A stretch of 43,166 nucleotides of DNA from Planctomycetia bacterium (GTDB lineage Bacteria > Planctomycetota > PLA2 > JAEUHO01). Under the pieces are notes generated by a model. That model was not told the origin of the DNA, searched no databases, and saw only the letters and a program-made list of their open reading frames with translations. Made by a program: the position numbers and the translations under genes. Below, piece after piece: positions 6,829-43,166 of this stretch. Every line of letters starts with the position of its first letter. Position 1 is the stretch's first letter. The stretch spans positions 1-43,166 of the forward strand of contig JAEUHO010000223.1 of NCBI GenBank assembly GCA_016795345.1. The letters are read 5' to 3'.

Positions 6829-8004
6829 GTGGCGTTCCCCCGCGTCCTGCTCGTCACCGCCTCCGCGGGGAACGGGCACACGCGCGCGTCGGCGGCGATC
6901 GCGGCGGCGCTCCGCGCGCGCCATCCGACCATCGACGTGGCCGAGGTGGACGTCATCACGCGCCTGCCGCGGTGGCACGGCCACACCTACAAGGCCGGCT
7001 ACGTCCGCCTCGTCGACCGCCACCCGCTCGTCTGGCGCGCGATCTACGAGGACACGGACCGCCAGGTGACCGCCCTCGGCCACCTGCTGTCGGTGTGGGC
7101 CGGCCGCCGGTTCCTGCGCGAGTCCATCGCGTGGCGCCCGGACCTCGTGGTCTCGACGCAGTTCCTGCCGCCCGAGCTCTTCGCGTGGGCCCACCGGAAG
7201 GGCTGGACGAAGGTGCCGCTCCACACCGTCGTCACCGACCACGACGCGCACCGCATCTGGTGGCAGCCCGAGGTGGAGCAGTACTACGTCGCGAGCGACC
7301 TCGTGCGCGCGCGGCTGTCCTACCGCTTCGCCGTCCCGTTCGACCGCATCCACGTGACGGGCATCCCGATCGACGCCGGGTTCCGCGCGCGCCGCGACCC
7401 CGTCGCGATCCGGGCGCGCCTCGGCCTCGACCCGGCGCGGCCGACGGTCCTCTTCCTGTCGGGCGGGTTCGCGCCCGGGCCCATGGCCGCGTCGATCCTC
7501 GGCATCTGGCAGGACCGCCCGGACGTGCAGGTGGTCGCCGTCTGCGGGCGCAACGTGCGGCTCGCGCGGCGGATCGCCGACCTCCCGCGGCCGGAGGGCG
7601 GCACGCTGCACGTGCTCGGCTTCCGCGACGACGTGCCCGACCTGATGACCGTCGCCGACCTCGTCGTCGGCAAGAGCGGCGGGCTCACGATGTCGGAGTG
7701 CCTCGCGGTGGGGCGGCCGTTCGTCGTGTCGCACGCGATCGCGGGCCAGGAGGAGCGCAACGCGGACGCGCTGCTCACGGGCGGTGGGGGCGTGAAGGCG
7801 CCGACCCCCGAGGAGGTGCGCTGGCACGTCGTGCGCCTGCTCGCGCGCCCGGACGAGCTGCGCGCGATGGCGGCGCGCGCCCGCGCGATGGGGCGACCCG
7901 AGGCGGCGGACCTCGTCGCGGACCGGATCGCCGAGCGGGTCCACCCGACCGTGGCGGTCCCTCTCCCGCCCCACGGCGCGCCCCGCCTCGCCCCGCGCGC
8001 CTGA
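6829..8004 (+). CDS. GT28-family glycosyltransferase (MGDG-synthase/UgtP/MurG-like diacylglycerol glycosyltransferase)
   Basis: N-terminal VLLVTASAGNGHTRAS and C-terminal GKSGGLTMSECLAVGRPFV. I prefer the GTG at 6829, which has GGAG 9 nt upstream. The track ORF starts at TTG 6736. Confidence 0.75.
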   Translation: MAFPRVLLVTASAGNGHTRASAAIAAALRARHPTIDVAEVDVITRLPRWHGHTYKAGYVRLVDRHPLVWRAIYEDTDRQVTALGHLLSVWAGRRFLRESIAWRPDLVVSTQFLPPELFAWAHRKGWTKVPLHTVVTDHDAHRIWWQPEVEQYYVASDLVRARLSYRFAVPFDRIHVTGIPIDAGFRARRDPVAIRARLGLDPARPTVLFLSGGFAPGPMAASILGIWQDRPDVQVVAVCGRNVRLARRIADLPRPEGGTLHVLGFRDDVPDLMTVADLVVGKSGGLTMSECLAVGRPFVVSHAIAGQEERNADALLTGGGGVKAPTPEEVRWHVVRLLARPDELRAMAARARAMGRPEAADLVADRIAERVHPTVAVPLPPHGAPRLAPRA

Positions 8005-13810: not shown

Positions 13811-13959
13811 GGGCTTCTCCGTGGAGGCCCGGATCGTAGCGGCCCCGGCGGGGGCCGCCGACCGCCGGTCCGGCCCCGGCGGCGCGGGGGGGGCGGCGGG
13901 CAGCGACCGGCGTTGTGCTATCCGGCCGGCCCGGGCCCCGCTACCTTGACGTGCTGCCC

Positions 13960-16900
13960 ATGGACGCACCCGCCTACCGTCCGACGCACCCGGTCCGCTT
14001 CGTGACGGCGGCCGCGCTGTTCGACGGCCACGACGCCGCGATCAACGTCATCCGCCGCCTGCTGCAGGACAGCGGCGCCGAGGTGATCCACCTCGGCCAC
14101 AACCGCAGCGTCCTCGAGATCGTGCAGACCGCCGTGGACGAGGACGCGCAGGGCATCGCCATCTCGTCGTACCAGGGCGGGCACGTCGAGTTCTTCAAGT
14201 ACGCGAAGGACCTCCTGAAGGAGCTCGGCGCCGACCACGTCAAGCTGTTCGGCGGCGGCGGCGGCGTGATCGTCCCGGCCGAGATCGAGGACCTCGAGCG
14301 GTACGGCGTCGAGAAGATCTTCAGCCCCGAGGACGGCCGCCGGCTCGGCCTCCAGGGGATGATCGACCATATGATGCGGGCGGCCGACTTCGAGCCGCCC
14401 CGGCTCGTCCGCGGCGGCGGGGTCCCGCGCCTCGCGCCGACGGACCGGCGGCTCCTCGCGTCCGCCATCACCACCTCGGAGCGCGCGGGCTTCGCCGACA
14501 CCGAGCTCGGCCGGGCCGTCCGCGCCGCCGCGGACGAGCTGCCCCGCGACCGCCGCTCGGTCGTCGTCGGCGTGACCGGCACGGGCGGCGCCGGCAAGTC
14601 GTCGCTCTGCGACGAGCTCGTGCTGCGGTTCCTCGAGGGGACGGCCCCGGAGGCCGGCGGCCGCGGCGGCGCGACGGTGGCCGTGCTGTCGGTCGACCCG
14701 TCGCGGCGGCGCACGGGCGGCGCGCTCCTCGGCGACCGCATCCGCATGAACTCGATCCCGCACCCGCGGGCCTACATGCGCAGCCTCGCGACCCGCGGCG
14801 CGAAGGGCGAGCTGGCCGCCGCGACGCGCGACGCCATCCGGCTCTGCCGCCTCGCGGGCTTCGACTGGATCTTCGTCGAGACCTCCGGGACCGGGCAGGG
14901 CGACACCGAGATCGTGGACCTCTGCGACGTCTCGGTCTACGTGATGACGCCCGAGTACGGCGCGGCGTCGCAGCTCGAGAAGATCGGCATGCTCGACTTC
15001 GCCGACTTCGTCGCCGTCAACAAGGCGGAGCGCCGGGGCGCCGACGACGCGCTGCGCGACGTGCGCAAGCAGGTCCGCCGCAACCGCCGCCTCTTCGACG
15101 GGCCCGACGAGGCCCTCGGGGTGTTCGGCACCGTCGCGAGCCGCTTCTGCGACGCGGGCGTGGACGCGCTGTTCGAGGCCCTCGTGGCGAAGGTCGCCGC
15201 GAAGACCGGGCGCAGCGTCCCCGTCCGCCTGCCGTCCGAGGCCACGGACCCCCGCGCGCCCCACGCCTCGACGATCATCCCGCACGACCGGACCGGGTAC
15301 CTCGGCGAGATCTCGCGCACCGTGCGCGCTCACAAGGCGTGGGTGGACGAGCAGGTGCGCTACGTCCGCGACGTCGGGCACCTCGAGGGGGCCCGCGCCC
15401 TCGTCGCGCGGGAGGGCGCCGCCGCGGGCGCGCTCGACGCCGTCGAGCAGGCCCTCGCCCGCGCGCGGGCCCGCGTCGACGCCAAGGCCCGCGCCGCCCT
15501 CGACGCCTGGCCGGCCCGCAAGGCCGCGTACCTCGCGGACGCGCTCTCGTACGGGGTCCGCGACCGCGCCGTCGAGCTGCCGACGTTCACCCGGAGCCTC
15601 GCGGGCACGCGCATCCCCAAGGTGGCGCTCCCGACGTCCGACGAGCCCGGCGAGGTGCTGCGGTTCCTGCTGCTCGAGAACCTGCCCGGCCAGTTCCCGT
15701 ACACCGCGGGCGTCTTCCCGTTCAAGCGGACCGACGAGGACCCGAAGCGCCAGTTCGCGGGCGAGGGCCCGCCCGACCGCACCAACAAGCGCTTCCACTA
15801 CCTCTGCCGCGGCGAGGCCAGCAAGCGCCTCTCGACGGCGTTCGACTCCGTGACGCTCTACGGCGAGGACCCCGCCGAGCGGCCCGACATCTGGGGCAAG
15901 ATCGGCGAGAGCGGCGTCTCCATCTGCACCCTCGAGGACATGGCGCGCCTCTACGCCGGCTTCGACCTGTGCGACGCGAACACGTCGGTCTCGATGACGA
16001 TCAACGGGCCCGCGCCCATCCTGCTCGCCATGTACATGAACACGGCGTTCGACCAGCAGGTGGACGCCTTCCGGGCGCAGCACGGGCGCATCCCCGACCC
16101 GAAGGAGCACGCCGAGCTCCTCGAGCGGACCGTCCGGACCGTCCGCGGGACGGTGCAGGCCGACATCCTCAAGGAGGACCAGGCCCAGAACACCTGCATC
16201 TTCTCGACGGCGTTCGCGCTGCGGATGATGGGCGACATCCAGCAGTGGTTCATCGACCACGAGGTCCGCAACTACTACAGCGTCTCGATCTCGGGCTACC
16301 ACATCGCGGAGGCGGGCGCGAACCCGGTCACGCAGCTCGCGTTGACCCTCGCCAACGGCTTCACCTACGTCGAGTACTACCTCGCGCGCGGGATGAAGGT
16401 GGACGACTTCGCGCCGAACCTGTCGTTCTTCTTCAGCAACGGCCTCGACCCCGAGTACACGGTGATCGGGCGCGTCGCCCGCCGCATCTGGGCCGTCGCC
16501 ATGCGCGACCGGTACGGCGCCAACGACCGCAGCCAGAAGCTCAAGTACCACGTGCAGACGTCGGGCCGGTCCCTCCACGCGCAGGAGATCCAGTTCAACG
16601 ACATCCGCACCACCCTGCAGGCGCTGCTGGCCCTGCAGGACCACTGCAACTCGCTGCACACGAACGCCTACGACGAGGCCATCACGACGCCGACGGCGGA
16701 GAGCGTGCGCCGCGCCATGGCGGTCCAGCTGATCTGCACCAAGGAGTACGGCTGGCTCCGCGCCGAGAACGCCCTCCAGGGCTCGTACTTCGTGGACCGG
16801 CTGACCGACGCGGTGGAGGAGGCGGTCCTCGACGAGTTCCGCCGCCTCGACGAGCGGGGCGGGGTGCTCGGCGCCATGGAGACGCAGTACCAGCGCGGGC

Positions 16901-17247
16901 GCATCCAGGAGGAGAGCCTCCTGTACGAGCGCATGAAGCACGACGGCTCGCTGCCCATCGTGGGCGTGAACACGTTCCTGCCGGAGCAGGCCGACGGCGC
17001 CGTGCCCCGCCAGATCGACCTCTCGCGCGCCACGCTCGAGGAGAAGCGGCTGCAGCTCGACCGGCTGCGCGACTTCCAGGGCCGGCACGCCGCGGCGACG
17101 CCCGGCGCGCTCGAGCGCCTGAAGCGGGTCGCGCGGTCCGGCGGCAACGTCTTCGCCGAGCTGCTCGCGACCGTCCGCGTGGCGTCGCTCGGGCAGATCA
17201 GCCACGCGCTCTACGAGGTCGGCGGGAAGTACCGCCGGAACATGTAG
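13960..17247 (+). CDS. icmF: Fused isobutyryl-CoA mutase (B12-binding domain + MeaB-type G-protein + mutase catalytic domain)
   Basis: N-terminal B12 domain (DGHDAAINVI, GGGGVIVP), P-loop GVTGTGGAGKSS with VNKAERRG (NKxD), and mutase core (FPYTAGVFPFKR, TINGPAPILLAMY, HIAEAGANP). About 1095 aa from ATG 13960. Confidence 0.93.
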   Translation: MDAPAYRPTHPVRFVTAAALFDGHDAAINVIRRLLQDSGAEVIHLGHNRSVLEIVQTAVDEDAQGIAISSYQGGHVEFFKYAKDLLKELGADHVKLFGGGGGVIVPAEIEDLERYGVEKIFSPEDGRRLGLQGMIDHMMRAADFEPPRLVRGGGVPRLAPTDRRLLASAITTSERAGFADTELGRAVRAAADELPRDRRSVVVGVTGTGGAGKSSLCDELVLRFLEGTAPEAGGRGGATVAVLSVDPSRRRTGGALLGDRIRMNSIPHPRAYMRSLATRGAKGELAAATRDAIRLCRLAGFDWIFVETSGTGQGDTEIVDLCDVSVYVMTPEYGAASQLEKIGMLDFADFVAVNKAERRGADDALRDVRKQVRRNRRLFDGPDEALGVFGTVASRFCDAGVDALFEALVAKVAAKTGRSVPVRLPSEATDPRAPHASTIIPHDRTGYLGEISRTVRAHKAWVDEQVRYVRDVGHLEGARALVAREGAAAGALDAVEQALARARARVDAKARAALDAWPARKAAYLADALSYGVRDRAVELPTFTRSLAGTRIPKVALPTSDEPGEVLRFLLLENLPGQFPYTAGVFPFKRTDEDPKRQFAGEGPPDRTNKRFHYLCRGEASKRLSTAFDSVTLYGEDPAERPDIWGKIGESGVSICTLEDMARLYAGFDLCDANTSVSMTINGPAPILLAMYMNTAFDQQVDAFRAQHGRIPDPKEHAELLERTVRTVRGTVQADILKEDQAQNTCIFSTAFALRMMGDIQQWFIDHEVRNYYSVSISGYHIAEAGANPVTQLALTLANGFTYVEYYLARGMKVDDFAPNLSFFFSNGLDPEYTVIGRVARRIWAVAMRDRYGANDRSQKLKYHVQTSGRSLHAQEIQFNDIRTTLQALLALQDHCNSLHTNAYDEAITTPTAESVRRAMAVQLICTKEYGWLRAENALQGSYFVDRLTDAVEEAVLDEFRRLDERGGVLGAMETQYQRGRIQEESLLYERMKHDGSLPIVGVNTFLPEQADGAVPRQIDLSRATLEEKRLQLDRLRDFQGRHAAATPGALERLKRVARSGGNVFAELLATVRVASLGQISHALYEVGGKYRRNM

Positions 17248-34501: not shown

Positions 34502-34577
34502 ACCGCGGGGCCCGCTCGCTCGCACGCGAGGCCCGCTCGGGGGCACGCGAGGCCCGTAGGTCGATACGCGAGGCCCG
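34502..34577 (+). repeat. Tandem array (21-22-bp period): one degenerate plus three exact copies of ACGCGAGGCCCG
   Basis: Exact 12-mers at 34524-34535, 34545-34556 and 34566-34577, and a degenerate ACCGCGGGGCCCG at 34502-34514. An inverted copy CGGGCCTCGCGT lies at 34657-34668. Confidence 0.9.
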
Positions 34578-41642: not shown

Positions 41643-42491
41643 CTACTTGCCTTCGCCGTCCGTCCCGCCGGGGGCGCCGTCGTCCATCGGCGCGGGCTCC
41701 GGCGTCGCGGGCTTGGCGGCCTCGTCCTTCTTGGGCGTCGTGCCGCTCGCCGCGTCTTCCTTCTCCTTCGCCTGCGTCTCCTCGAGCGCCTTCGCGCTCG
41801 CCTTGACGCCCTGCGCGATCACGACCTGCGCCGCCGCGGCGGGCAGCAGGAAGCTCTTCGTCCAGCGCGGGCCGTCCGACACGCCCTGCTGCTGGATCAT
41901 CACGCCGGCGAACTTGCCCGCGCCGGTGAACAGCGGGCTCGCGAGCGCCCACGCGCCGGAGGGCAGCCACATGTCGCGCGGCTTCTTCACCTGCCCGACG
42001 ATCTTCACGGTGCCGTAGTACGGCGCGTAGTCGAAGCCGTCCTCGAGGCGGGAGACGCCGAACAGCTCGTCGCCGACCTTCACCTCGCCGGCGTCGGCGG
42101 GGTTGACGGGCGCGATCGCGCGTCCGGTCGTGTCCTTGATGCGGAAGAACGCGAGCCCCAGCCGGCTGTCGAACGCGCCGAGGATCGCGTCGTACTCCTT
42201 CTCGTCGCCGGGGAACACGACGCGCGCGCTCACGAGGGCGACCTTCGCGCCGCCGCGCGTGTTGCCGAGCCCGGTGGTCATCACGACGCCGCTCGGGTCC
42301 ACGAGGGTCCCCATCCGCTCGGAGGCGTTCTCGAACTCGCCGATCTTCGTCACCAGCTTCAGCACCACGACGGAGGCCGCCTTGGTGTCGAGTTGCTGGG
42401 CGTAGGCCGGGTCGTCGGCATGGACCGACGTCGGGCAGGCGAGGGGGCCGGCGAGCAGCGCGGCGGCGAGAGCGAGGGGGGCGAAGCGCAT
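41643..42491 (-). CDS. Secreted protein, distant trypsin/HtrA-like fold guess, acidic/Lys-rich C-terminal tail
   Basis: ATG at 42491 with AGGAG upstream, and signal peptide MRFAPLALAAALLAGPLA. Segments loosely recall S1C proteases (GTLVDPSGVVMTT, LGLAFFRI, GDELFGVS), but I cannot identify a His-Asp-Ser triad. Confidence 0.45.
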   Translation of the reverse strand: MRFAPLALAAALLAGPLACPTSVHADDPAYAQQLDTKAASVVVLKLVTKIGEFENASERMGTLVDPSGVVMTTGLGNTRGGAKVALVSARVVFPGDEKEYDAILGAFDSRLGLAFFRIKDTTGRAIAPVNPADAGEVKVGDELFGVSRLEDGFDYAPYYGTVKIVGQVKKPRDMWLPSGAWALASPLFTGAGKFAGVMIQQQGVSDGPRWTKSFLLPAAAAQVVIAQGVKASAKALEETQAKEKEDAASGTTPKKDEAAKPATPEPAPMDDGAPGGTDGEGK

Positions 42492-42609
42492 CCGGGGGTA
42501 CTCCTGGTCCTGCAGCCTACGCCACCCCGCGGTGATGGGGGTGGGCCCCTCCTTCTCGGCCGTCGGCCCCCCGGACGTGAGGCGGCCGCCGCCGGAGTGG
42601 GGGACGGGG

Positions 42610-42630
42610 CGGGCCTCGACCCGAGGCCCG
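42610..42630. repeat. Perfect palindrome CGGGCCTCG-acc-CGAGGCCCG (inverted pair of the dispersed motif core)
   Basis: 9-bp stem with a 3-nt loop. It lies between the tRNA-like copy 1 and the start of the 41643..42491 gene. Confidence 0.85.
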
Positions 42631-42663
42631 GTCGGGGAGGGGGGCTCCACCGGCCGAGGCGCC

Positions 42664-42744
42664 GCGGCCTTCGTGGTTGCGGGGGCGGGAGTCGAACCCG
42701 CGCGGACCGTCGGTGGGGCCGGCGGTCTTGAAGGCCGGTTGGAC
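42664..42744 (-). repeat. tRNA-like 3' segment, copy 1 (T-arm + acceptor 3' strand + CCA; RNA part 42674-42744); no matching 5' acceptor strand immediately upstream
   Basis: The minus strand reads GUCCAACCGGCCUUCAAGACCGCCGGCCCCACCGACGGUCCGC-GCGGG-UUCGACU-CCCGC-CCCCGCA-A-CCA. It is identical over 81 bp to 43086-43166. Confidence 0.7.
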
Positions 42745-42750
42745 GGCGAC

Positions 42751-42762
42751 CGGGCCTCGCGT
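42751..42762 (-). repeat. Dispersed 12-mer (reverse copy) abutting the upstream edge of tRNA-like copy 1
   Basis: Exact match. Together with 42622-42633 it forms a 12-bp inverted repeat (cgaggcccggtc / gaccgggcctcg) bracketing copy 1. Confidence 0.8.
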
Positions 42763-43012
42763 TGGCGGACAGGGCCCGCGATCTCGCCCTCCGGCTCCGC
42801 GCGACGCGCCGTTCTCTAAGGAGGGGCCATGTGGCCCCCTGCGGGCGGCGCTGCGCGCCGTCCTCGGGGGACGTCGCTCGCTGCGCTCGCTCCTACCCCG
42901 CGCTGTTCTGTGAGGGGGCCAAGCCCCCTCACCGGGCTCGCTGCGCTCGCCCTCCTCCCCCTTCGGCGCCTGCGGGTGCTTCGCACCCTGGTCGCCTACC
43001 ACCCCTCCCGGT

Positions 43013-43032
43013 CGCGGGTCGACTCCCGCCCC
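43013..43032 (+). repeat. Degenerate inverted copy of the same T-arm/acceptor segment (opposite strand)
   Basis: The plus strand cgcgggtcgactcccgcccc matches the minus-strand element cgcgggttcgactcccgcccc with a 1-nt deletion. The flanks also resemble it (ccacc..cggtc). Confidence 0.6.
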
Positions 43033-43064
43033 AGTTCCCCGGACCACGGACGCTCTAGAAATGG

Positions 43065-43095
43065 CGAAGGCCGCTGCTTGTGGCAGCGGCCTTCG
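43065..43095 (-). terminator. Intrinsic-terminator-like hairpin immediately 3' of tRNA-like copy 2
   Basis: Perfect 13-bp stem CGAAGGCCGCTGC / GCAGCGGCCTTCG with a 5-nt loop. On the minus strand it is followed by CCAUUUCUAG, the most AT-rich spot in the region. Confidence 0.55.
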
Positions 43096-43166
43096 TGGTT
43101 GCGGGGGCGGGAGTCGAACCCGCGCGGACCGTCGGTGGGGCCGGCGGTCTTGAAGGCCGGTTGGAC
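43086..43166 (-). tRNA. tRNA-like gene, copy 2, truncated by the window edge (3' part only visible, CCA at 43096-43098). Possible class II tRNA; the loop CUUCAAG would give anticodon UCA (tRNA-Sec-like), but the anticodon stem is non-canonical
   Basis: GGTTCGACTCC T-arm, a 7-nt acceptor strand, discriminator A, encoded CCA, and a terminator hairpin directly downstream. CUUCAAG lies at the distance from the 3' end expected for a long-variable-arm tRNA. The 5' half lies outside the window. Confidence 0.4.

Follow-up and report, generated by a model that had tools for sequence, protein, structure and literature searches.

What is the 3′ end of a tRNA doing twice, 422 bp apart, at the edge of a planctomycete contig? 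The window (the whole 43,166-nt stretch of DNA analysed here) ends in such a duplication, and the copies might be tRNA genes, the footprint of an integration event or something else. A repeat search of the window found an 84-nt direct repeat with one mismatch (42661-42744 / 43083-43166). The perfect core of 81 nt (42664-42744 / 43086-43166; start-to-start spacing 422) agrees with what the initial annotation of this DNA had noted, and a perfect repeat of this length cannot be a product of chance. Read on the minus strand, both copies end in GGTCCGCGCGGGTTCGACTCCCGCCCCCGCAACCA, and the tRNA anatomy that had been seen in them is real: copy 1 comprises a T-arm (42701-42685), an acceptor 3′ strand (42684-42678), the discriminator A73 and CCA (42676-42674), and copy 2 has the same parts at +422.

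In this study we find that the repeats in the window are the last two copies of a 300-420-bp repeat and not tRNA genes. On balance, we consider them to form the far end of a tandem array whose start lies within an initiator tRNA-Met gene beyond position 43166, on the minus strand. The end of the window falls within the repeat, hence the source assembly was probably interrupted there, and the source genome has at least two units.

The repeated segments are not tRNA genes

The ARAGORN and Rfam searches that the initial annotation had proposed returned no tRNA, tRNA-Sec or tmRNA gene in the window (ARAGORN: 0 tRNA or tmRNA genes; Rfam at gathering thresholds: 0 matches). The heptamer CUUCAAG (42733-42727, minus strand) had been read as the anticodon loop of a tRNA-Sec. 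The units of relatives have CUCCGAAAC, GUCCGAAAC, GUCCGAAAG and GGCCGCACC instead (L001, L006, L017 and L004), and the Rfam tRNA-Sec model reaches 14.6 bits against a threshold of 47. The tmRNA model of Rfam matches only 18 nt of the T-arm (model positions 346-363; 14.9 bits against 47), and position 70 in the 3′ strand CCCCGCA is G and not U, leaving no G3:U70 pair. Copy 2 had been suspected to be a tRNA running past the edge; however, over the 47 nt that precede its T-arm it does not differ from copy 1, and this stretch includes the pseudo-copy junction CCACCGACGGTCCGCGCGGG (43138-43119) where the true tRNA reads CTCATAACCTGGAGGTCGCGGG, hence copy 2 is not the true tRNA. An interrupted tRNA with the 5′ half CGCGGGG had been considered as well. 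The heptamer is indeed present at 42896-42902 on the minus strand, but it is part of a ~117-nt module that the 303-bp units do not have and that another species has in reverse orientation.

A functional tRNA-like gene, be it a tRNA-Sec, a one- or two-piece tmRNA or a tRNA interrupted by an insert, would account for the canonical T-arm, acceptor strand, A73 and CCA, and the minimum free energy (MFE) structure of 42674-42910 does pair CGCGGGG, 222 nt upstream, with the 3′ end. Given the empty ARAGORN result, the sub-threshold Rfam scores, the missing G3:U70 pair, the unconserved UCA loop, the position of CGCGGGG in an optional module, which homologous units lack or have in reverse, and pseudo-copies that are unlike the true tRNA everywhere 5′ of GGTC, this reading is already refuted by the comparison with relatives and we regard it as next to impossible. 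Other candidates were rejected too: for a group I intron or other interruption of a tRNA the insert would be ~150 nt, there is no Rfam intron match and the '5′ half' lies in the optional module; for a retron, a ribozyme-bearing tandem repeat or a tRNA-primed retroelement there is no reverse transcriptase and no ribozyme match.

The tRNA-Sec, the intact second copy and the interrupted tRNA of the original interpretation did not hold up; what survived are the initiator tRNA 3′ end and the suspicion that the repeat is longer than 81 bp. The real tRNA-Met(CAU) of relatives, with C1xA72 and A11:U24, has an identical 28-nt 3′ end, and GCGGGTTCGACTCCCGCCCCCGCAACCA is the same in the true tRNA and the pseudo-copies; the period of the repeat is that of a 303/420-bp tandem unit. 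In viral contigs, the 28-nt tRNA end matches only phage-borne tRNA-Met genes, which have no bearing on the repeat.

Anatomy of the repeat unit

The features of the array end are listed in the direction of the minus strand, with DP and IP denoting direct and inverted pseudo-copies of the tRNA end.

43096..43130, minus strand: second DP (repeat search), part of the next upstream unit, which is itself cut at 43166
42674..43095, minus strand: complete repeat unit of the 420-type, 422 bp (spacing 422), from just past the CCA of copy 2 to the CCA of copy 1
43065..43095, minus strand: copy of a terminator hairpin, 13-bp stem, loop ACAAG, then CCATTTC (arms 100% complementary)
43010..43032, minus strand: IP, GGGGCGGGAGTCGA-CCCGCGACC (repeat search and sequence comparison)
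42991..43009, minus strand: G-rich block GGGAGGGGTGGTAGGCGAC, which with the IP pairs to 42709-42726, just upstream of the DP
42974..42988, minus strand: hairpin GGGTGC-GAA-GCACCC, with a compensatory change of U-A to C-G in L001_u1 and L004 (pair 112-120)
42841..42959, minus strand: GC-rich insertion module of ~117-119 nt, which separates 420-bp from 303-bp units (alignment)
42818..42840, minus strand: hairpin hp1, AGGGGGCC-ACAT-GGCCCCTCCTT, its 5′ arm split by the module (alignment, consensus fold)
42709..42817, minus strand: right half of the body, with a GGCGCGTCGCGCGG box, a ACGCGAGGCCCG box (42762-42751), CUUCAAG and the junction CCACCGAC
42674..42708, minus strand: terminal DP, the last 35 nt of the initiator tRNA gene and right-hand boundary of the array
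42492-42673, minus strand: conserved leader of the protease gene (alignment)
41643..42491, minus strand: secreted trypsin-like protease gene, the synteny anchor for all related loci

The terminal DP reads GGTC(CGC)GCGGG-TTCGACT-CCCGC-CCCCGCA-A-CCA, and past it the alignment turns into the unique, conserved leader of the protease gene. The IP is the reverse complement of tRNA GGTCGCGGGT(T)CGACTCCCGCCCC with a 1-nt deletion. An inverted degenerate copy had been noted here before, and 17 nt of it (43016-43032) are 94% complementary to both direct copies. Both IP and DP begin their tRNA homology at the same base (GGTC). The 13-bp hairpin that had been described after copy 2 is likewise real (43065-43077 / 43083-43095, 100% complementary), and the alignment shows it to be a positional orthologue of the terminator found after the true tRNA-fMet at filled as well as empty loci. 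Hence, with every further unit, the tRNA 3′ end and its terminator have been duplicated as one. Together, the IP, the G-rich block and the segment upstream of the DP form an imperfect inverted repeat or closing helix of ~35-40 nt, which RNAalifold places at columns 65-99 / 254-295 and which is also found in the MFE structure of the window unit.

A unit has two parts, the dead tRNA end with its terminator hairpin and an element of ~235 nt that is non-coding and rich in hairpins; the outer halves of the inverted repeats that bound this element are an inverted and a direct copy of the tRNA variable-loop/T-arm segment. Six-frame translation of the units gave no conserved ORF, with open frames at chance level for 75% GC. 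An SD-like AAGGAGG with ATG was rejected as a gene start, as it lies in a hairpin loop, is lost or replaced by GTG/ACG in other lineages, and its frame is broken by indels.

Aligned end to end, the window unit is 88-91% identical to the 420-bp units of L001 and L006 and, the module aside, it also aligns with the 303-bp units of L001, L017, L018 and L004. The module contains two GCGAGCGCAGCGAGC boxes, a hairpin GTGAGGGGGCTTGGCCCCCTCAC and the CGCGGGG formerly taken for a tRNA 5′ end; it is missing from L001 units u1 and u2, L017 and L004, reversed in L018, L019 and L020, and was found nowhere else in the 43-kb window. The right half is the most variable block (48-85% identity to other lineages): within it, the GGCGCGTCGCGCGG box is conserved and CUUCAAG is not.

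Related loci with filled and empty sites

Related Planctomycetota MAGs share one layout, in which a LuxR-type gene is followed by tRNA-Met(CAU), a terminator, one to seven units of 303 or 420 bp and the secreted protease. Arrays are present in JAXMAB01, GCA_964268455.1, GCA_020851795.1 and the ERZ27246970 bin. The best example is L001, where the protease is 90% identical to that of the window and a true tRNA-Met(CAT) lies at 7429-7503. According to TRF its array consists of 2.5 tandem units of 303 bp and 4.4 of 420 bp, every unit ends in GGTCCGCGCGGGTTCGACTCCCGCCCCCGCAACCA, and the array stops just upstream of the protease leader, as it does in the window. The number of units varies: L017 has one, L018 has two and the conspecific L019 one fewer, L006 has one and a partial unit, and the sequence of L003 is cut within its last unit. 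On contigs L001, L006, L017, L018 and L033 the whole array is seen with unique flanks on both sides, and the same unit or array was assembled independently in at least six other datasets (public metagenomes and MAGs).

The initial annotation had suggested looking for an empty site in relatives, and two were found. In L021 and L029 (protease 52-53% identical) the order is tRNA-fMet, terminator, ~110 nt and protease; in L028 (protease 70% identical) an intact unit was not found. It had also held that an integration scar would be contradicted by relatives that carry the same arrangement with no intact tRNA nearby. A true tRNA-Met(CAT) is present at the head of the array in L001, L006, L017 and L018.

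Neighbouring units are homogenised, with 81 nt perfectly identical in the window and L001 u2-u6 being 92-97% identical. Unit variants do not follow their hosts, as the spacer type of the window matches L001 and not the closer relative L006. We rejected this incongruence as a sign of horizontal transfer because sorting of variant units within arrays explains it equally well.

A sister copy behind tRNA-Asp

A sister element is located behind tRNA-Asp(GTC) in L033, L030 and L004. Block by block, the identity of its body is 73-88% (80% over the whole unit), and it shares the junction, while its ends are those of the local tRNA: the DP ends in the 3′ end of tRNA-Asp, and the IP has the tRNA-Asp T-loop variant (ACTCGAA vs. 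AGTCGA). The IP, which is nearly invariant at tRNA-fMet loci (window, L001, L006, L017, L018), differs at its outer end in the tRNA-Asp copy of L004. The two tRNAs share exactly AGGTCGCGGGTTCGA, a 15-nt core. An intact tRNA-Asp is found at the head in L030 and L033, the tRNA-Asp version of the 3′-end direct repeat in L033, and L030 has one period fewer than L033. Downstream lies the end of a convergent gene. Truncated terminal units retain the IP end at both loci, extending from the IP through hp1 at tRNA-Asp and from the IP core through part of the module in L006. In an nhmmer profile search of 355 kb of sequence, copies were found only behind tRNA-fMet and tRNA-Asp. A G-U pair in the T-stem of L004 was considered as a sign of a recombinant joint and rejected, as the true tRNA-Asp has the same G-U.

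Conservation and predicted fold

In the alignment of units, 94.7% of the cells are paired in the consensus structure. Pairs that changed on both sides number 11, compared to 3.1 ± 1.4 in shuffles (0/500) and 0-5 in slid controls, and these compensatory changes preserve four hairpins and the long IP/DP helix. In the terminator stem, for example, pair 4-28 occurs as CG, AU and GC, and hp1 has the compensatory variants GGCGACATCGCC (L001 u2) and GGGGTGTCATCACCCC (L018 u2). The unit folds with a z-score of −4.5 and the segment DP-terminator-IP with one of −7.8. The blocks are unevenly conserved: the IP and the G-rich block are 88-96% identical in all lineages and the spacer 32-73%, and the blocks hold 88-96% even between lineages whose spacers are just 32-36% identical.

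The strand of function does not emerge from these data, as independent consensus folds of sense and antisense are equally stable and favour neither. G-U cells outnumber A-C cells 39:3 in the sense structure, a ratio that is circular because the structure was predicted on that strand. A scan of the L001 array for promoter and terminator consensus sequences gave 0 sites, which is uninformative for a planctomycete of 75% GC. Rfam families were not matched in the units or in the loci of relatives beyond the true tRNA; weak ar35 and miRNA matches correspond to the terminator hairpin. A tRNA-like cloverleaf made of IP and DP was also rejected: it can be drawn for L018 (7-bp acceptor), but acceptor pairing shrinks to 4-5 bp in other units of the fMet type, and at tRNA-Asp there is none.

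Origin and nature of the element

The reading we lean towards is a small non-autonomous element that is associated with tRNA 3′ ends and has been amplified by unequal recombination between the tRNA-end repeats. Such an element might be, or might once have been, non-autonomous mobile DNA, like an integrase-less att-flanked remnant (CIME) or a MITE. It could home to tRNA genes sharing AGGTCGCGGGTTCGA by site-specific recombination at the T-loop, carried out by a recombinase encoded elsewhere that would act in trans on GGTCGCGGGTTCGA-containing sites. After the first unit, direct copies of the tRNA 3′ end ~300 bp apart could drive unequal crossing-over or replication slippage, which would expand, contract and homogenise the array; the perfect 81-nt identity of neighbouring copies may be due to such homogenisation.

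The trans-acting recombinase is hypothetical, since no integrase, transposase or reverse transcriptase was found in the 43-kb window, where a Pfam scan of the ORFs gave housekeeping families only (the initial annotation had seen no integrase either), or among the called genes flanking L001, L017 and L018 (no recombinase in L017 and L018 by Pfam). As in an att scar, there is an intact tRNA at one end (in relatives), a direct repeat of its 3′ end at the other and an empty site; an integrase in or beside the insert is missing. Like CIMEs, the units are att-flanked by tRNA-end repeats and have no integration or transfer genes and no conserved ORF. The terminal inverted repeats (IP/DP, imperfect, ~35-40 nt) are those of a MITE; a target-site duplication and many dispersed copies are not found, the flanks read in the window, L001, L017 and L018 being free of a direct repeat. 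No parent ICE, IME or phage was detected, viral contigs giving 0 matches for the DP junction and 0 for the body motif.

Some observations speak against mobility. A native-looking terminator stands between the true tRNA and the element; in classical integration it would be expected after the distal repeat, unless attP had captured the terminator, and the alignment has no clear terminator-equivalent hairpin after the last DP. There is also no reason why the core should be present in inverted form in a classical integrative element. Just two loci are known, and the same site across 63-97% protease identity could reflect vertical inheritance and loss.

The uneven conservation of the blocks and the compensatory changes are as compatible with a function in RNA as with one in DNA. 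It is rather unlikely that the units are genes for a structured non-coding RNA and the array a multicopy RNA operon. In one version, the unit would be transcribed, alone or by read-through from the tRNA, with processing at the tRNA-like 3′ end, where T-arm, acceptor and CCA would mimic an enzyme substrate; in another, a ~100-nt RNA from IP to hp1, the 5′ part of which is antisense to the 3′ half of the adjacent tRNA, would modulate folding or maturation. The compensatory changes in the four hairpins and the IP/DP helix, the unit's z-score and the two terminator-like hairpins per unit in the direction of the tRNA would suit an RNA, as would the near invariance of IP and G-rich block though the flanking protein is only 63-97% identical, the way in which the IP follows the local T-loop at tRNA-Asp, and the IP end kept in truncated units. 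However, there is no Rfam match and no promoter-like site (in the scan already called uninformative), the equal stability of sense and antisense folds identifies no RNA strand, and the 5′ acceptor strand of the cloverleaf is short in most fMet-type units and lacking at tRNA-Asp. A near-perfect helix of 35 bp is atypical for a functional small RNA, and covariation in a palindrome also arises in DNA elements that are recognised as hairpins. A neutral segmental duplication is less probable still. Here, illegitimate recombination would have duplicated the stretch from the tRNA variable loop to ~270 bp downstream once, followed by unequal crossing-over, with ordinary intergenic DNA as the body and an accidental inverted copy. 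The terminator copies, which are native sequence, the differing copy numbers of close relatives and the homogenised units agree with it. Such a duplication, however, gives whole units only, and the arrays that are fully seen at tRNA-fMet (window, L001, L003, L017) end with an extra partial copy, the DP; hence the single-unit state already had two direct tRNA-end repeats. Nor does it predict a homologous body with locus-specific ends behind a second, unrelated tRNA gene, tRNA homology that starts at the same base in DP and IP, or compensatory changes and blocks conserved far beyond the spacer.

We consider very improbable an inverton, in which IP and DP would be recombinase sites that flip the ~190-310-bp body and thereby control the secreted protease downstream. 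The 35-40-nt inverted repeats do enclose a short non-coding stretch, ~180 nt ahead of the gene for a secreted protein, and a single core is present three times, in the tRNA T-arm, the IP and the DP. Yet the body has one orientation in every assembly examined (window, L001, L006, L017, L018, L004/L033), indels of 1 and 3 nt make the repeats imperfect, the neighbourhood has no invertase gene, and at tRNA-Asp there is nothing downstream to regulate, as a convergent gene ends there. The second copy stops precisely where the window does, after 81-84 nt of identity, as typically happens when a de Bruijn contig breaks in a repeat, and this might suggest a spurious terminal duplication by the assembler; given the independent assemblies from at least six other datasets, some with contigs across the entire array, an artefact is extremely unlikely, the copy number in the source aside.

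Returning to the small non-autonomous element, it might be possible, if doubtful, that it represents a previously undescribed family of small, non-coding, palindrome-bounded sequences located just downstream of tRNAs with AGGTCGCGGGTTCGA. The ends of its members would be a direct and an inverted copy of the host tRNA 3′ end, and they would amplify into arrays, either as tRNA-templated non-autonomous mobile DNA or as cis-antisense or tRNA-mimic RNA acting on the maturation of the adjacent (initiator) tRNA.

In annotation, repeated tRNA 3′ fragments of this kind are readily mistaken for genes of a tRNA, pseudo-tRNA or tRNA-Sec, and short-read assemblies break at them; in this clade, the majority of public contigs stop within a few hundred bases of the array. 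If our reading is true, the footprint of recombination at a tRNA site can persist and amplify as a cargo-free structured unit of less than a kilobase, and the unit would be a minimal 'att-only' element, smaller than the CIMEs described. The inverted T-arm copy that tracks the neighbouring tRNA at two loci points to a constraint, which might be pairing with the 3′ half of the tRNA or a second recombinase site. This constraint adjoins the initiator tRNA gene, which through its dosage and maturation bears on all translation initiation. If the units were merely a decaying scar amplified by unequal crossing-over, they would be an ordinary curiosity.

Comparison with known systems

In tmRNA and other tRNA-like RNAs, such as the Y-RNA-like YrlA and viral 3′ tRNA-like structures, a T-arm/acceptor end is joined to a large non-tRNA domain. 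With these RNAs our unit shares the canonical T-arm and acceptor 3′ strand ending in ACCA next to such a domain, and a four-way junction could in principle be made of IP and DP; it differs in that no family model matches it and in lacking G3:U70, a tag reading frame and a conserved 5′ acceptor strand. The resemblance is an automatic consequence of a unit that has a tRNA fragment and its inverted copy. MITEs and palindromic elements (Correia, REP/BIME-type) are non-coding and hairpin-rich, ~100-400 bp long and bounded by inverted repeats, with their enzymes encoded elsewhere. Small size, lack of coding capacity, inverted-repeat bounds and hairpins are common to both, whereas our units have no target-site duplication, are not dispersed (355 kb searched), copy the neighbouring tRNA in their termini and stand in tandem with a fixed spacer.

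Integrons build cassette arrays with IntI at attC sites that have RYYYAAC...GTTRRRY boxes. Tandem short units, an imperfect palindrome of ~110-125 nt at the end of each and one fixed anchor site are found here too, and the palindrome folds as single-stranded DNA with bulged bases (z = −7.8). However, the boxes here are GTTCGAC...GTCGA(A)C, of opposite polarity and with a wrong fourth base, an IntI is lacking, and the 'cassettes' are all alike and free of ORFs. With both attC boxes and IntI missing, an integron cassette array was rejected.

Close as well are tRNA-gene fragments that serve as attR sites, CIMEs and tandem islands integrated at the T-loop (PMC9897764, PMC5704250, PMC3146451). With attR fragments and CIME accretions our arrays have in common an intact tRNA at one end, direct repeats of the tRNA 3′ part as bounds of the units, tandem units at one tRNA, an empty site in relatives and units with no recombinase inside (PMC9897764; PMC5704250). 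CIMEs and islands are kilobases long and carry cargo genes, and accretions join different elements, whereas here a non-coding unit of 303-420 bp is reiterated up to seven times (PMC9897764; PMC5704250). In contrast to CIMEs, each unit also repeats an inverted core copy and the tRNA's own terminator, and a parent ICE, IME or phage is not known. The ssrA islands of Dehalococcoides are 10-30 kb long and all different, with a repeat of 20 bp; many encode the serine recombinase DsiB, and some units with no integration module of their own have been proposed to be cis-mobilizable (PMC3146451). Unlike our units they have no inverted copy, but they share with them a series of 3′-end direct repeats downstream of an intact tRNA-like gene and an inferred crossover in the T-loop (PMC3146451).

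The repeat in the window

The window is a segment of bacterial chromosome with 75% GC and housekeeping genes, among them those for class II ribonucleotide reductase, a fused MeaB-mutase, M1 and M3 peptidases, a CLC channel and TrmB. The mutase is a single ORF of 1110 aa (13915-17247, +) with B12-binding, MeaB GTPase and methylmalonyl-CoA-mutase domains, an ordinary fused IcmF-type architecture. No integrase, transposase or reverse transcriptase was found in the window. Near its end, upstream of a protease gene and on the same strand, lies a direct repeat of 84 nt that is perfect over 81 nt and has a single mismatch, its copies being spaced 422 bp start to start:

41643-42491, minus strand: secreted trypsin-like protease gene
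42492-42640, minus strand: protease leader
42661-42744: copy 1
42841-42959, minus strand: ∼117-nt GC-hairpin module
42896-42902: CGCGGGG heptamer, within this module
43016-43032: inverted 17-nt copy of the T-arm/acceptor, 94% complementary
43065-43077 / 43083-43095: 13-bp perfect hairpin directly after copy 2, from the repeat search
43083-43166: copy 2, terminating exactly at the window's final base

On the minus strand both copies read ...CCACCGAC-GGTCCGC-GCGGG-TTCGACT-CCCGC-CCCCGCA-A-CCA, a canonical T-arm followed by the acceptor 3' strand, discriminator A and CCA. The initial annotation had described this tRNA 3' segment, its direct repetition, the hairpin and the degenerate inverted third copy correctly. 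Its suggestions of a tRNA-Sec or an interrupted tRNA did not hold. ARAGORN predicts no tRNA or tmRNA gene across the whole window and Rfam gives no match at gathering thresholds; at permissive thresholds the tmRNA model matches the 18-nt T-arm only (14.9 bits versus 47) and the tRNA-Sec model reaches 14.6 versus 47. Position 70 is a G, so that the G3:U70 pair of tmRNA and alanine tRNA is absent. A tRNA, tRNA-Sec or tmRNA gene is thereby ruled out. The CUUCAAG that had been read as a UCA anticodon loop sits in the variable right half of a repeat unit and is not conserved. The heptamer proposed as a 5' half is real, but it belongs to the ∼117-nt module, which is absent from some related units (L001 units 1 and 2, L017, L004) and reversed in others (L018, L019, L020); this excludes it as a tRNA half. 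The tRNA-like segments are firmly identified as dead 3' fragments.

Tandem arrays behind an initiator tRNA

With the protease as anchor, syntenic loci were found in several Planctomycetota MAGs and metagenome contigs.

Related loci: protease identity to the window; contents following the LuxR/GerE-type gene
L006: 97%; tRNA, one 420-bp unit and a partial unit
L001: 90%; tRNA-Met(CAT) at 7429-7503, then 2.5 x 303 bp and 4.4 x 420 bp tandem units
L003: 89%; short contig, begins within the last unit
L017: 73%; tRNA and a single ∼300-bp unit
L028: 70%; tRNA and terminator, no intact unit
L018: 63%; tRNA and two units (one fewer in its conspecific L019)
L021, L029: 52-53%; tRNA, terminator, ∼110 nt, protease (empty site)

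The L001 tRNA (CGCGGGGTGGAGAAGTGGTATCTCGTCAGGCTCATAACCTGGAGGTCGCGGGTTCGACTCCCGCCCCCGCAACCA) has a C1xA72 mismatch and an A11:U24 pair, which are established initiator features. Every unit of the L001 array ends in GGTCCGCGCGGGTTCGACTCCCGCCCCCGCAACCA, and the array stops just upstream of the leader of the protease gene. These loci firmly establish that the window repeat marks the end of a tandem array that has its anchor in an initiator tRNA gene. Equally firm is the finding that copy number varies between close relatives and that more distant ones are empty, L021 and L029 providing the empty site for which the initial annotation had proposed to look. The window holds the final 1.2 units of such an array. 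Copy 1 is the terminal pseudo-copy; what lies beyond it aligns with the leader, a unique sequence, that precedes the protease in the relatives. In copy 2 the pseudo-copy junction (CCACCGACGGTCCGCGCGGG) is present and the anticodon arm of the tRNA is missing, so that at least one further unit, and then the true tRNA, should lie beyond 43166.

Several of the related contigs come from short-read assembly, in which repeats may be collapsed. Long G/C homopolymer runs occur in L001 (9200-9370, corrupting a stretch within one unit), L014 (40-135), L015 (1990-2030) and L016 (40-90), and the L015 contig is a perfect palindrome carrying two inverted protease genes; all of these are artefacts of public assemblies at or near the repeat region. 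In L017 (8957-9340) an unrelated segment of ∼260 bp, repeated 1.5 times, directly follows the pseudo-tRNA end of the single unit. Both copies begin at CCCCCGCAACCGGCCGGGGCC, so that a tRNA-end fragment also bounds a different duplication there. L028 shows about five short tandem repeats of GGGCCATTTRG behind the tRNA terminator (95-165).

Anatomy of a unit

The order of elements, from alignments A1 and A2, is as follows:

1. direct pseudo-copy of the tRNA, from variable-loop GGTC through CCA
2. copy of the terminator hairpin, then CCATTTC
3. spacer of ∼25 nt, poorly conserved (32-73% identity)
4. inverted pseudo-copy GGGGCGGGAGTCGA-CCCGCGACC, then G-rich block GGGWGGGGTGGTAGGCGAC
5. hairpins GGGTGC-GAA-GCACCC and GGAGGGGCC-ACAT-GGCCCCTCC
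6. more variable right half, including GGCGCGTCGCGCGG and ACGCGAGGCCCG
7. junction to the following direct pseudo-copy

A 3-nt insertion (CGC) is common to every pseudo-copy and missing in the true tRNA. In empty-site genomes, the hairpin that follows the tRNA is the positional orthologue of this terminator (alignment A4). The inverted pseudo-copy and G-rich block are 88-96% identical across all lineages and complementary to the junction and direct pseudo-copy over ∼35-40 nt, which delimits an element of ∼235 nt with long imperfect inverted repeats at its ends. What distinguishes 420-bp from 303-bp units is the ∼117-nt module, situated in the 5' arm of the second hairpin. It contains two GCGAGCGCAGCGAGC boxes and the hairpins GAGGGGGC-TTG-GCCCCCTC, CGTCC-CCCGA-GGACG and GGCGC-GCA-GCGCC. 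In another species it has the opposite orientation (L018 9386-9440 and 9780-9920, L019, L020) and in one case splits the acceptor portion of a pseudo-tRNA copy. Seen at this locus only, the module resembles an independent small insertion element.

The spacer between terminator and inverted pseudo-copy (window 43033-43064; L006 3497-3526; ∼25-30 nt) is of two unrelated types, one shared by the window and L001, the other by L006 and L017. The types do not track relatedness of the flanking protease (L006, 97%); units could have been exchanged between lineages, or variant units sorted within arrays.

The 12-mer ACGCGAGGCCCG, present once per unit, is strongly over-represented in the window, with 25 matches at up to one mismatch (15 of them exact) against 3.7 ± 1.7 expected and none of 100 shuffles reaching 25. 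Examples are 4610, 11371, 26029, 30111, 34524/34545/34566 and 37255 (+) and 10096, 17317, 23348, 23494, 28347, 34668 and 42762 (-). Many copies appear intergenic, three stand in tandem at 21-nt spacing (34524-34577), and L030 and L035 likewise contain many; the 12-mer may represent a motif that occurs genome-wide in this clade, either regulatory or REP-like. The ∼110-nt leader ahead of the protease start (...TCCGGGGGGCCGACGGCCGAGAAGGAGGGGCCCACCCCCA.CAC.GC.GGGTGGCGTAGGCTGCAGGACCAGGAG...ATG; also L001 9880-10001, L003 190-290, L006 4100-4211), is almost invariant where the protease is 89-97% identical and recognisable at 73-78%. Its GCGTAGG(C/A)TGC recurs upstream of another ORF (∼11396). It has no Rfam match and may be a promoter or 5'-UTR element.

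A second locus behind tRNA-Asp

A metagenome scan for the direct pseudo-copy junction turned up a related unit on another contig, L004. Longer versions of this locus, L030 and L033, place it immediately behind a true tRNA-Asp(GTC) gene; judging from shared samples, this is the genome of the 78%-identity relative. The order is tRNA-Asp, 61-nt spacer, inverted pseudo-copy, body, direct pseudo-copy, spacer, inverted pseudo-copy and a body that breaks off in the second hairpin; one period fewer is present in L030 than in L033. The body is 73-88% identical to the window by block (80% for the whole unit) and the junction with its CGC insertion is the same, while the direct pseudo-copy ends in the tRNA-Asp 3' end (GTCCCGTCGCTCCCGCCA) and the inverted one has the tRNA-Asp T-loop variant (ACTCGAA, not AGTCGA). 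The stretch common to tRNA-fMet and tRNA-Asp is exactly AGGTCGCGGGTTCGA, constant at both loci, and from it the tRNA homology of both pseudo-copies begins. A homologous element behind a second tRNA, with ends matching that tRNA, is thus firmly documented. A unit profile search of 355 kb of sequence gave no further copies.

Structure and origin of the unit

Seven units representing five lineages share a consensus fold of 86 pairs, in which 94.7% of cells are paired. Both sides have changed in 11 pairs, compared with 3.1 ± 1.4 in column shuffles (0/500 reach 11) and 0-5 in slid controls. The window unit folds with z = -4.5, and direct pseudo-copy, terminator and inverted pseudo-copy folded as single-stranded DNA give z = -7.8. 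No reading frame is conserved across units. The unit might instead make a functional RNA, which would either act in cis as an antisense of the tRNA 3' half or mimic a tRNA end for the purpose of processing. Such a role would agree with the covariation and with the unevenness of conservation between blocks, but it finds no support from strand, promoter or family matches. The consensus folds of the sense and antisense strands do not differ in stability, so that constraint on an RNA of either strand is not told apart from constraint on DNA hairpins.

As the straightforward mechanism, the direct tRNA-end repeats would recombine unequally or undergo slippage, and the array would grow and shrink accordingly. 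This would explain why the terminator is repeated with each unit, why neighbouring units are homogenised (81 nt perfect in the window; 92-97% among L001 units 2-6) and why L018 and L019, like L033 and L030, differ by one period. The first unit might have arisen when a site-specific recombination event took place at the T-loop, a route described for islands that occupy tRNA and ssrA genes and for the integrase-less remnants of such islands (PMC9897764, PMC5704250, PMC3146451). Four points suggest such an origin: the boundary of tRNA homology is sharp and shared, a 15-nt core is common to both target tRNAs, the sequence 3' of TTCGA is locus-specific, and an empty site exists. However, a nearby recombinase gene is lacking, the native terminator separates tRNA and element instead of following the last repeat, an inverted core copy that tracks the local tRNA is retained, and only two loci are known, all of which argues against classical integration. 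The integration scar considered in the initial annotation fits the tRNA 3'-end repeats and the empty site; the missing recombinase and the inverted core copy speak against it, as does the position of the terminator unless the attP of the element had captured it.

Two other classes fail: a MITE, as there is no target-site duplication and the element is not dispersed, and an integron attC site, as the box polarity is wrong and IntI is absent. The nearest known systems are attR-type tRNA fragments, CIME accretions and the ssrA island arrays of Dehalococcoides. Unlike these, the array described here consists of one sub-kilobase, cargo-free unit that is reiterated, with an inverted core copy present and the terminator repeated along with it.
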